Assembly (NCBI GenBank): GCA_016839585.1
Contig: JAEOTZ010000016.1
Coordinates: 15,215 to 79,214, forward strand
Reading direction: 5' to 3'
Source: Promethearchaeota archaeon
GTDB lineage: Archaea; Asgardarchaeota; Lokiarchaeia; Sigyniarchaeales; SOKP01
Length of the DNA stretch: 64,000 bases
A program made the translations under genes and the position numbers. Below the pieces are notes generated by a model, which searched no databases, was not told where the DNA came from, and saw nothing but the letters and a program-made list of their open reading frames with translations. Positions 27,274 through 40,379 of this stretch are shown here, in pieces. Every line of letters starts with the position of its first letter. Position 1 is the first letter of the stretch.

Positions 27274-28587
27274 ATGGAGTATACAGAATGGTTAAAATAC
27301 AAGGATTTAGAATATCGAGATGGAATATTATATTTTGAGAATGTAAACACATTAGATTTAGCCAAAAAATATGGAACTCCTTGTTATATTATTAATGAAA
27401 ATATGATTCGAAAACGATATAATGAATTAAAAAATATTATTGATTCTGAATACATAAAAAATGATATACACTTTGCTGTGAAGGCAAATTCAAATATATC
27501 TATTCTAAAAATCCTTGATTCTGAGGGATCACATTTCGATTGTACGTCAAGAGGAGAAATTTACACATGTCTTAAAGCAGGGATATTCCCAGAGAAAATC
27601 ATTTATACAGGAAACATGTTTACCAATGAAGACTTCGAATTTGCTATTATAAATGGTGTTGTTGTTAATTTAGATAGTCTTAGTCAACTAGAAAGGTTAG
27701 AAAGAGCATATAATAAATTAAAAAAAGAAAAAAAACCAGTATCTTTTAGAATAAATCCTGAATTTGGAGCCGGACATCATATTCATGATATTACTGCTGG
27801 AAAAGATATTAAGTTTGGAATCTTAGAAGATCAAGTTATTGAAGCATATAAGAAAGCGAGGGAATTGGGCTTTAGGGATTTTGGTATTCACCAACATATT
27901 GGGTCTGGGATAAATAATCCTTATGATTTTGAAAGAGCTACTAAGAAATTTCTATCAATTATCAAAAAAATTATTGACTCACTCCATATTAAGTTTAAAT
28001 TTATAGATTTTGGCGGAGGTTTGGGAATTCCTTATCATCCAGAAGAAGACCCTTTAGATTTAGATCTTTACAAAGAAATAGTTATTAAACCATTTAAAGA
28101 ATTAGTTAACACTGAAGATATTGGAGAGCCTATATTTAAAATTGAACCAGGAAGATATTTATCTGCTGAATCAAGCATTATTTTAACTCAAATAAACACA
28201 ATAAAAGATAATGGATATAAATTATTTGCAGGGATAAATGCTGGATTTAACACTTTGATAAGACCGACGATGTATAATTCCTATCACCATATAATCGTTT
28301 GCAACAAAAAAGAAAAAGTTAGAAAATTAAAGTATGATATCGCAGGACCTATATGTGAATCTGGAGATATTCTAGGAAAAGAAAGAGATTTACAAGAGTT
28401 AAAGGAACAAGATTATCTTGCTATTCTTGATACAGGTGCTTATGGTTTTACGATGAGTAGTACATATAATTCAAGACCCCGACCTGCTGAAATTTTAATT
28501 AAAAATGGACGATCATTCAAAATTCGAGAAGCAGAATCTTACGATAATTTATTAAAACTTCAAATAATTCCTGATCATCTCAAGTAA
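27274..28587 (+). CDS. lysA: Diaminopimelate decarboxylase
   Basis: FAVKAN (PLP lysine), HIGSG, DFGGG, EPGRY, GPICESGD. Confidence 0.95.
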   Translation: MEYTEWLKYKDLEYRDGILYFENVNTLDLAKKYGTPCYIINENMIRKRYNELKNIIDSEYIKNDIHFAVKANSNISILKILDSEGSHFDCTSRGEIYTCLKAGIFPEKIIYTGNMFTNEDFEFAIINGVVVNLDSLSQLERLERAYNKLKKEKKPVSFRINPEFGAGHHIHDITAGKDIKFGILEDQVIEAYKKARELGFRDFGIHQHIGSGINNPYDFERATKKFLSIIKKIIDSLHIKFKFIDFGGGLGIPYHPEEDPLDLDLYKEIVIKPFKELVNTEDIGEPIFKIEPGRYLSAESSIILTQINTIKDNGYKLFAGINAGFNTLIRPTMYNSYHHIIVCNKKEKVRKLKYDIAGPICESGDILGKERDLQELKEQDYLAILDTGAYGFTMSSTYNSRPRPAEILIKNGRSFKIREAESYDNLLKLQIIPDHLK

Positions 28588-28704
28588 AATATTCATTTAT
28601 GTTTCTTAGATAAAAAAAAATAAAAATATTACTGATTTTTATTATTACGAGATAAAATTATAAAAGTGAGAATATTTAAGGCTTGGATACCCTTTATATA
28701 TTCT

Positions 28705-28770
28705 TAATGAAGAGTTGGCATTATGAAATCTATATTATTGGGTTAATGATAATACTGATCTGCTCTGATA
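28705..28770 (+). ncRNA. Candidate box C/D guide sRNA
   Basis: C box ATGAAGA 28707-13, D' ATGA 28723-26, C' ATGATAA 28746-52, D CTGA 28765-68. Guides are complementary to conserved archaeal 16S helix-34 sequences. It lies between convergent genes and has a T-rich 3' flank. Confidence 0.65.
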
Positions 28771-28831
28771 TATTTTTATAATTTTATCTCATTTTCTAAA
28801 ATGAACTTCACTATGTGAAAATACTTTAGAA

Positions 28832-29653
28832 TCATAAACCCAAAACTTCAGCTGTGCTATAAATCTTACTTTCTTTTGCTTTAACAATGAATTTAATTGC
28901 ATTAATTGCACCTGTAGCAAAACAAAGCCTACTATGAGCCTGATGTTTTAATTCAATTCTTTCTCCAGACCCTCCAAATAGTACAATATGATCACCAACA
29001 ATATCACCTGCCCTAATTGAATGAATCCCAATTTCATTTTTTGCCCCTAGTAACCGCTTATTAGGTCCCTTATTACGTCCAAATTTAGCTATAGCTGAAA
29101 AATCAGAACCTAAAGTATTACTAATAAGTTGTCCAGTTTTCAGAGCAGTTCCACTTGGGGCATCAATTTTTCTATGATGATGTGCTTCAATTATTTCAAT
29201 ATCCCATTCTGATAGATAGTTAGCTAATACTGAAGCCATTTTAAAGAAAATATTCACACCAGTTGCCATGTTTGGCGAAATTACAGCAGGCGCATTATGT
29301 TCTTTAACTAATTTTTCGAATTTATTGAGAAAATCTTGAGATAATGCTGTTGTTCCAATAATACATCGAATACTATTCTTCACACAAGTTTCACTATTTT
29401 TTTCTGTTGCTTTTGCAACTGTAAAATCAACCGCTACATCAGGATTCGTTTTTTCGATAACATTTTGAAGGTTATTTACATTATTAATTTTTACTTTATT
29501 TGGATCTTTTGTGGCTACATAAGCTCCTAACTCTTCTCCAATATTGCTTACATCGCAAGCAGCCACTACTTCAATATCACCATCATTTAAGGCTAATTTA
29601 CTTATAATTTTTCCCATTGCCCCCGTTGGACCTAAAATTAATAACTTAATCAA
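28832..29653 (-). CDS. dapB: 4-hydroxy-tetrahydrodipicolinate reductase
   Basis: GPTGAMG, DFT, EAHHHRKIDAPSGTA, RAGDIVGDH. Confidence 0.95.
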   Translation of the reverse strand: MIKLLILGPTGAMGKIISKLALNDGDIEVVAACDVSNIGEELGAYVATKDPNKVKINNVNNLQNVIEKTNPDVAVDFTVAKATEKNSETCVKNSIRCIIGTTALSQDFLNKFEKLVKEHNAPAVISPNMATGVNIFFKMASVLANYLSEWDIEIIEAHHHRKIDAPSGTALKTGQLISNTLGSDFSAIAKFGRNKGPNKRLLGAKNEIGIHSIRAGDIVGDHIVLFGGSGERIELKHQAHSRLCFATGAINAIKFIVKAKESKIYSTAEVLGL

Positions 29654-40276: not shown

Positions 40277-40379
40277 GGGAGGGTAGTCTAGCCTGGTATG
40301 ATTCTTGGTTTGGGACCAAGTAAACGAGCCAATATGACCGTTTTGGTAAGGGTCGGGGGTTCAACTCCCCCCTCTCCCA
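40277..40379 (+). tRNA. tRNA-Pro(UGG) with a 29-nt intron (40321-40349) at position 43/44
   Basis: Acceptor stem GGGAGGG/CTCTCCC+A, anticodon arm CTTGG-TTTGGGA-CCAAG, T-arm GGGGG-TTCAACT-CCCCC; no encoded CCA. Confidence 0.92.

Follow-up and report, generated by a model that had tools for sequence, protein, structure and literature searches.

The 64,000-nt window analysed here, taken from contig JAEOTZ010000016.1 of a Promethearchaeota archaeon, very probably carries on its plus strand a genuine box C/D guide RNA gene for position 1197 of 16S rRNA (E. coli numbering), as judged from the boxes, the guide and their conservation. An unannotated box C/D sRNA had been proposed at this locus by the initial annotation, and that proposal has held up well: the boxes lie where it had placed them, the element is conserved family-wide, and no Rfam family matches at the gathering threshold, a permissive Rfam search returning weak snoRNA-like noise alone. 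The features of the element and its surroundings are collected in Table 1.

Table 1. Features of the sRNA element and its neighbourhood, in window coordinates
Feature	Position	Strand	Remarks
lysA, diaminopimelate-decarboxylase-type gene	27274-28587	+	
A/T-rich box AAAAATAAAAAT, TATA-like, putative promoter	28616..28627	+	conserved block within genus
P1, 5’ arm of closing helix	28649..28667	+	pairs with 28772-28790
H1, 5’ hairpin	28668..28705	+	loop CUUGGAUAC at 28682-28690
Box C, AUGAAGA	28707..28713	+	UGA and G6 invariant in genus alignment A2
D’ spacer GUUGGCAUU, 9 nt	28714..28722	+	no supported target
Box D’, AUGA	28723..28726	+	invariant in genus; C-stem of internal K-turn follows directly
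Internal stem-loop AAUC...GGUU, C-helix of C’/D’ K-turn	28727..28744	+	
Box C’, AUGAUAA	28746..28752	+	UGA invariant; 3-nt bulge AAU in front
D guide spacer UACUGAUCUGCU, 12 nt	28753..28764	+	16S pairing via 28752-28763; D+5 = C28760
Box D, CUGA	28765..28768	+	invariant in genus
P1, 3’ arm of closing helix	28772..28790	+	includes T5 run
dapB	28832-29653	-	dapA behind dapB

The element sits in a 244-nt gap in which the 3’ end of lysA faces the 3’ end of dapB, two lysine-synthesis genes that converge on it. This position, together with the long inverted repeat that brackets the element with an A-run and a T-run, might suggest that there is no sRNA gene here, and that chance box-like motifs have arisen within a cis-acting or DNA-level feature, such as a palindrome serving as a bidirectional terminator or an element that regulates the lysine pathway; motifs like ATGA and CTGA arise often in a genome as AT-rich as this one. 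We regard this as very improbable. The boxes and guide are invariant while the loops vary, the stems of the K-turns covary, the arms of the inverted repeat (helix P1) lie ~100 nt apart and show a G:U asymmetry that marks pairing at the RNA level, and the guide-and-box unit recurs in unrelated contexts in other phyla. Because both neighbouring genes point at the element, a 5’ leader or riboswitch is impossible, and gene orientation likewise rules out a lysine regulator of this kind. A minus-strand gene was also rejected: no boxes are found on the minus strand, and read from it the G:U pairs would turn into A.C mismatches.

As a plus-strand sRNA gene, the element would be served by the A/T-rich box listed in Table 1, a putative promoter; the box stops 22 nt upstream of the first base of P1, a distance that would fit a transcript start at P1. 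Genes for Nop5 and fibrillarin are adjacent on contig C52 of the same genome. Elsewhere in the window, an Rfam tRNA match at 40277-40379 extends over 103 nt although the model has 71 positions, and the excess implies an intron in the tRNA.

The box C/D core and its predicted 16S rRNA target

The four boxes together cover 62 nt. Box C agrees with RUGAUGA at 6 of 7 positions; its position 5 pairs with U2 of box D and its G6 with C1 of box D, both as Watson-Crick pairs, and its position 7 covaries with the base preceding box D (U-A in 25 sequences, A-U in 4). This last covariation fixes the register of box C, and accounts for the final base of the nominal guide being U here and A in most relatives. 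An alternative register, UCGAUGA with a 12-nt spacer, was rejected: its G3 varies between G and A in the genus, whereas the register adopted here has an AUGA-G that does not vary and that covaries with box D. The C’-D spacing is 12 nt and the C-D’ spacing is 9 nt family-wide, against an archaeal rule of 10-12 nt.

The small hairpin that had been reported between boxes D’ and C’ is present as a 4-bp AAUC/GGUU stem (28727-30 with 28741-44) with a 10-nt loop, and its pairs covary (U-A, U:G, C-G). A bulge of AAU or GAU precedes the GA of box C’, and the combination of stem, 3-nt bulge and GA opposite AUGA fits the predicted geometry of a K-turn, as against the usual archaeal K-loop. An additional covarying hairpin of ~15 nt is found in the C’/D’ region of 26 of the 30 aligned species of the genus. 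Across the genus alignment, 91% of cells are paired in the core, compared with 49% or less after sliding the partners, and four core pairs are altered on both sides. Covariation thus backs both K-turns, C/D and C’/D’.

No 16S rRNA gene has been assembled in the MAG to which the window belongs, despite 99% completeness; the only rRNA found in it is a 23S fragment (model positions 16-1319) cut off by the end of contig C76 (G000, 1-1412). Pairing was tested against full-length 16S of three congeneric species and further 16S of the family. Against these, the D guide AUACUGAUCUGC forms 12 bp with 16S GCAGGUCAGUAU, 11 of them Watson-Crick and one G:U, with guide letters ATACTGATCTGC facing GCAGGTCAGTAT in the target. 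Of the 13 pairs originally proposed for this guide, 12 stand against the 16S of relatives and the thirteenth, at U28764, does not; that base is better paired with position 7 of box C, given the A-U/U-A covariation. The site is the only one of such quality in 16S plus 23S, and an equally good site was found for 9 of 3000 shuffled guides (~0.3%). By alignment with E. coli rrsH the duplex covers 1194-1205, and the D+5 rule picks the first G of GGUC, N+5 being position 1197 on the 3’ strand of helix 34; both the helix and the nucleotide (the first G of AGGUC) agree with what the initial annotation had stated. The N+5 pair is a Watson-Crick C-G pair.

The target is identical in all 18 family f1 16S sequences that span the region. 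The guide stretch GAUCUGC is likewise constant in the family except for one U-to-C change (genus g18), which turns the G:U pair into G-C; the same guide base is C in other phyla as well, giving a perfect duplex. The G:U wobble lies at N+6, beside the target nucleotide, and could perhaps reduce activity. Variants of the D guide with ACA or ACC at N+9 are present in some MAGs of the family, all of which lack 16S; genera g16 and g20 have variable guides. One 16S sequence from the same genus, L048 (G058:C18), is unlike all other family 16S in helices 34-36 (GGUGUUCUCUUAAGUGAGAC) and past the target, and may be a binning contaminant from another lineage.

The annotation had also assigned the D’ spacer to helix 34, so that both guides would address it, and this part did not survive. 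The letters cited for the D’ guide, GAGTTGGC, do occur, but GCCAGCUC, the target proposed for them, is missing from 16S, in which the actual strand reads GCCAGUUC (E. coli 1064-1071). Against that strand the D’ spacer forms 8 pairs in this genome, including two tandem G:U pairs, and 6 in most of the genus; two of the pairs use nucleotides of box C, and the duplex starts at position 4 from D’. The spacer also drifts by genus (GUUGAC, UUUGGC, GUAGGC, GACGAC and others) while the rRNA strand is invariant. Other D’ targets in 16S and 23S gave at best 9 bp with 3 G:U pairs (530 loop), and a scan of 11 tRNAs gave at best 7 nt, in the anticodon loop of tRNA-Gly(GCC), both at chance level and not conserved; the spacer letters complementary to that loop are GUUGGCA. 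A G-R-C-R core (GGCA, GGCG, GACA or GACG) is kept in the spacer of nearly all genera while its flanks drift. The D’ spacer is treated here as a putative orphan. In the proposed mechanism the D guide would be the sole working conserved guide, and the RNA, assembled with L7Ae, Nop5 and fibrillarin, would direct 2’-O-methylation of the G at E. coli 1197.

The proposed extended fold

Archaeal box C/D sRNAs typically end in a short stem beside boxes C and D. No such stem adjoins the boxes in this RNA, which would be closed by two parts that the initial annotation had not listed, the 5’ hairpin H1 and the 19-bp helix P1, for a predicted total of ~142 nt. Lack of the short stem marks the RNA as a variant and is no argument against the guide mechanism. 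Over 28 sequences from 11 genera, 92.8% of the cells in P1 are paired and 9 of 18 pairs are altered on both sides; the inner 16 pairs contain 20 G:U cells and 3 A.C cells. In the GC-richer genera the A/U-rich arms are replaced by quite different, still complementary sequences, and P1 still pairs in genera g15 and g17, where the arm sequence is no longer TATA-like. Because complementarity is kept and G:U exceeds A.C, P1 is best taken as a plus-strand RNA helix and not as a promoter palindrome, and for the same reasons the reading of the left arm of the repeat as a promoter was discarded.

The stem of H1 covaries as well (A-U/G-C at 28679/28693), and its 9-nt loop is essentially invariant across family f1 and in the homologue found in family f3. 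A GGATACC hairpin followed by box C/D motifs has a single instance in the genome, which is H1 itself; the idea of H1 as a general sRNA module of this genome was dropped, the hairpin being found at the sRNA locus alone. Over the full element, 20 of 38 pairs are altered on both sides, and none of 500 shuffles matched the observed value on four of five covariation measures; for the remaining measure, further pair types, 9 of 500 did so.

The 3’ strand of H1 terminates exactly at the 3-nt bulge of box C, and the D-box strand joins P1 after 1-3 nt. The transcript would accordingly be of ~142 nt (28649-28790), with P1 joining its ends and H1 placed between P1 and box C. In this model the terminal K-turn would have H1 as its C-helix, with P1 added as a further helix on the strand that carries no bulge, a topology that we read as a putative k-junction. 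In secondary-structure topology the RNA resembles the k-junction, an elaborated K-turn known from TPP riboswitches (PMC4005666, PMC10573300): the 3’ strand of H1 leads to the box C bulge of 3 nt and to the G.A pairs of that box, and P1 breaks the D-box strand before the 5’ strand of H1 is reached. P1 would most likely unite boxes C and D for RNP assembly, or else stabilise the RNA or take part in its processing; in AT-rich species the T5-T6 runs of its 3’ arm could end transcription before P1 is complete. To our knowledge, no box C/D RNA has been described with a k-junction, and the apparent novelty of this Asgard family lies in its enlarged, k-junction-like architecture around the 62-nt core.

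The mature RNA might instead be the compact core of 62-70 nt, P1 and H1 forming a short-lived precursor stem that is trimmed away or serves circularisation. Archaeal C/D sRNAs are usually 50-70 nt long and some are circular (reviewed in PMC7994747), the Freyarchaeia, Sifarchaeia and Thermoproteota have compact homologues without H1, and a paralogue in genome G009 has neither P1 nor H1 and carries the identical A/T box 22 nt ahead of its box C. We consider such trimming possible, though not likely: the invariance of the H1 loop in both f1 and f3 implies constraint above what a disposable leader would need, and H1 adjoins the box C bulge precisely where a K-turn requires its C-helix, with no other terminal stem present.

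A further reading concerns the H1 loop. Through GGAUACC the loop could form seven Watson-Crick pairs with 16S GGUAUCC (E. coli 1081-1087), ~10 nt past the 5’ strand of helix 34, a stretch that is invariant in f1 but for the divergent G058 copy (GGUGUUC). The RNA could thus be mainly an rRNA-folding chaperone that keeps the helix 34-36 region open by means of the D guide and the H1 loop, methylation being secondary or absent. The H1 motif is found with no other sRNA in the genome, chaperone roles of dual guides have been described in the literature, and the partner guide that other archaea carry, antisense to GGAGGUGCAU, makes bridging of helix 34 typical of this sRNA family. We nevertheless judge a mainly chaperoning RNA unlikely. 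The loop region contains five 7-mers, for which ~0.45 chance matches to 16S are expected (an estimate), one nucleotide of the 7-mer belongs to the H1 stem, and the N+5 pair is a normal C-G pair that leaves methylation unblocked; loop and 16S partner are both invariant, which makes a covariation test impossible. More specifically, the f1 RNA might be a ~142-nt snoRNA-like RNA with a terminal k-junction, whose H1 loop pairs with 16S 1081-1087 while the D guide holds 1194-1205, the RNP clamping helices 34-36 during small-subunit assembly. This is a doubtful proposal; if true, it would make the RNA an intermediate, both structural and functional, between compact archaeal sRNAs and eukaryotic snoRNAs with accessory rRNA-binding elements.

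Conservation and distribution of the guide

A 96-nt query gave full-length matches in ~45 of 54 species of the genus. The covariance model R1, built on the core, recovered it from 105 of 131 family f1 genomes, which represent 11 of the 13 genera of f1; the same model gave no match in 19 genomes of the three sister families of the order. A pattern search run afterwards found a diverged homologue in one of these, family f3. Family f2, complete genomes included, yielded no homologue by R1 or by pattern, three f2 pattern matches being rejected as apparent coding regions without boxes.

Genus alignments have invariant boxes and D guide, variable loops, and DNA outside the element that does not align; mean column identity is 87% within the element, and alignment is lost in the flanks past P1. 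Placement between lysA and dapB is kept at ~40 of 50 family loci, and the LysA proteins at the family loci are 54-90% identical (~66-70% among the species of the same genus alignment). The element is evidently under purifying selection across this Asgard family, as its pattern of sequence conservation shows, and conservation and covariation across the whole family make it more than a product of chance.

The f3 homologue, L142 (G026), has an H1 hairpin, GGGCUGGAUACCC, a box C of GAUGAAG and the D guide, together with a D’ box of ACGA and a GC-rich internal stem; it lies outside the lysA-dapB synteny, and a possible P1 3’ arm, GCUACAA, is shifted ~35 nt downstream of box D. Paralogues of the sRNA, in tandem or nearby at 1-4 kb from the main copy, were observed at L018:2654-2746 (G009) and in genomes G093, G126, G128, G151 and G088. 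In some of these P1 and H1 are missing and the D’ spacer differs (GUUGACACU); in some the D guide has gained one nucleotide or the 5’ half is truncated.

The guide itself reaches well beyond this order. The pattern TGA-N4-ACTGAYCTGC-N-CTGA was run over 400 genomes of the phylum (Asgard), and outside f1 it matched 6 of 6 genomes of family f21 and single genomes of f3, f19 and f29; the reversed pattern, used as a control over the same 400 genomes, gave zero matches. A perfect-complement pattern searched in 185,579 species gave 67 matches, ~43 archaeal and ~24 bacterial, an enrichment in archaea if the library is, as assumed, mostly bacterial. The archaeal matches sit in canonical compact C/D sRNAs and come from Freyarchaeota (including an f21 chromosome), Jordarchaeia and Sifarchaeum (f29), and from many Thermoproteota, such as Pyrobaculum oguniense, Vulcanisaeta, Thermofilaceae, Bathyarchaeia and Nitrososphaeria. 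A partner guide (A/G)UG(C/U)ACCUCC accompanies many of these archaeal guides; it is antisense to the 16S strand at E. coli 1047-1056, to which the D target is paired in mature helix 34, and its N+5 is presumably close to the position of yeast Gm1271. Since the partner guide hits this strand, the statement that both guides lie on helix 34 holds for the wider sRNA family and not for the RNA of the window.

Compact sRNAs in which ACUGACCU(G/A)C, the guide for helix 34, is combined with a partner of this type, so that two strands of one part of helix 34 are addressed, were seen at L158, L195, L200, L206 and L216 (uncultured archaea, Iainarchaeum and Micrarchaeota), at L159-L192 (Thermoproteota) and at L197, L203 and L211 (Freyarchaeota and Jordarchaeia). 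In the DPANN loci L161, L166, L188, L189, L198 and L221 (Nanoarchaeia, Woesearchaeota and uncultured archaea), a C/D unit with guide ACUGACCUAC lies in an apparent tRNA gene, flanked on one side by a stretch resembling an anticodon arm and on the other by a GGTTCAAATCC T-arm. GUAGGUCG is present in the tRNA part that follows, and the DPANN guide may on that account target its own tRNA and not 16S.

The guide of the window RNA is also present in P. calidifontis sR32 (PCAsR32), which has RNA-seq reads behind it (Dennis et al. 2015, PMC4644070). Pyrobaculum sR32 (PMC4644070; Lui et al. 2018, PMC6009581) and the window RNA share the 12-nt UACUGA(C/U)CUGC, followed by a D-type box, and select the same N+5 nucleotide. 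The versions in Pyrobaculum, other Thermoproteota, Freyarchaeia and Sifarchaeia measure ~50-70 nt and have two 12-nt spacers and a short C’/D’ linker, whereas the window RNA has a 9-nt orphan D’ spacer and a K-turn with stem-loop at C’/D’; the window RNA alone has the G:U pair at N+6, the 5’ hairpin H1 and the 19-bp closing helix. Outside the boxes and guide, homology of the window RNA to the compact versions was not detectable, and an Rfam family was found for neither. A literature search found no paper on box C/D RNAs of Asgard archaea. The description of this RNA as an Asgard guide proves too narrow, since other Asgard classes, many Thermoproteota, further lineages and the published sR32 all have an identical guide in an unchanged register: by sequence comparison, the guide is widespread in Archaea, was known already from Pyrobaculum, and is not specific to Asgard archaea.

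Eukaryotic counterparts and significance

The literature places yeast Gm1428 (guided by snR56), human Gm1490 (U25) and Arabidopsis Gm1431 at one position in helix 34, and homologous guides have been reported from Plasmodium and Dictyostelium. As is predicted for the window RNA, snR56, SNORD25 (U25) and AtsnoR19 are guides for a helix 34 site of the small subunit. In the yeast 18S motif AACAGGUCUG, a count to m7G1575 points to the first G as the one that is methylated, and on that count Gm1428/Gm1490 in 18S CAGGUC would be the same nucleotide as the target of the window RNA. A common target is no proof that the guide genes share descent. Sequence similarity to SNORD25 was not detected, and SNORD25 is not among the Rfam matches of the element even at E values up to 10. 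Guides for the shared site are found across Thermoproteota and in several Asgard classes, so it looks archaea-wide and not like a link between Asgard archaea and eukaryotes in particular.

In its predicted architecture the window RNA also resembles the eukaryotic box C/D snoRNAs that have external or terminal stems: a long flanking helix unites C and D, the length exceeds 100 nt, and a variable stem-loop lies in the C’/D’ region. Unlike them, it is archaeal and predicted to be independently transcribed, and its 19-bp helix is strongly conserved.

These results add a well-supported, unannotated ncRNA family to Asgard genomes, one with an unusual closure for a box C/D RNA, in which a closing helix and an accessory hairpin are combined with a C’/D’ K-turn and one orphan short spacer. 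The matching archaeal guides indicate that the ribose methylation site in helix 34 is probably older than eukaryotes. If the extended form is the working form of the RNA, the family would bear on the origin of large snoRNAs with extra domains.
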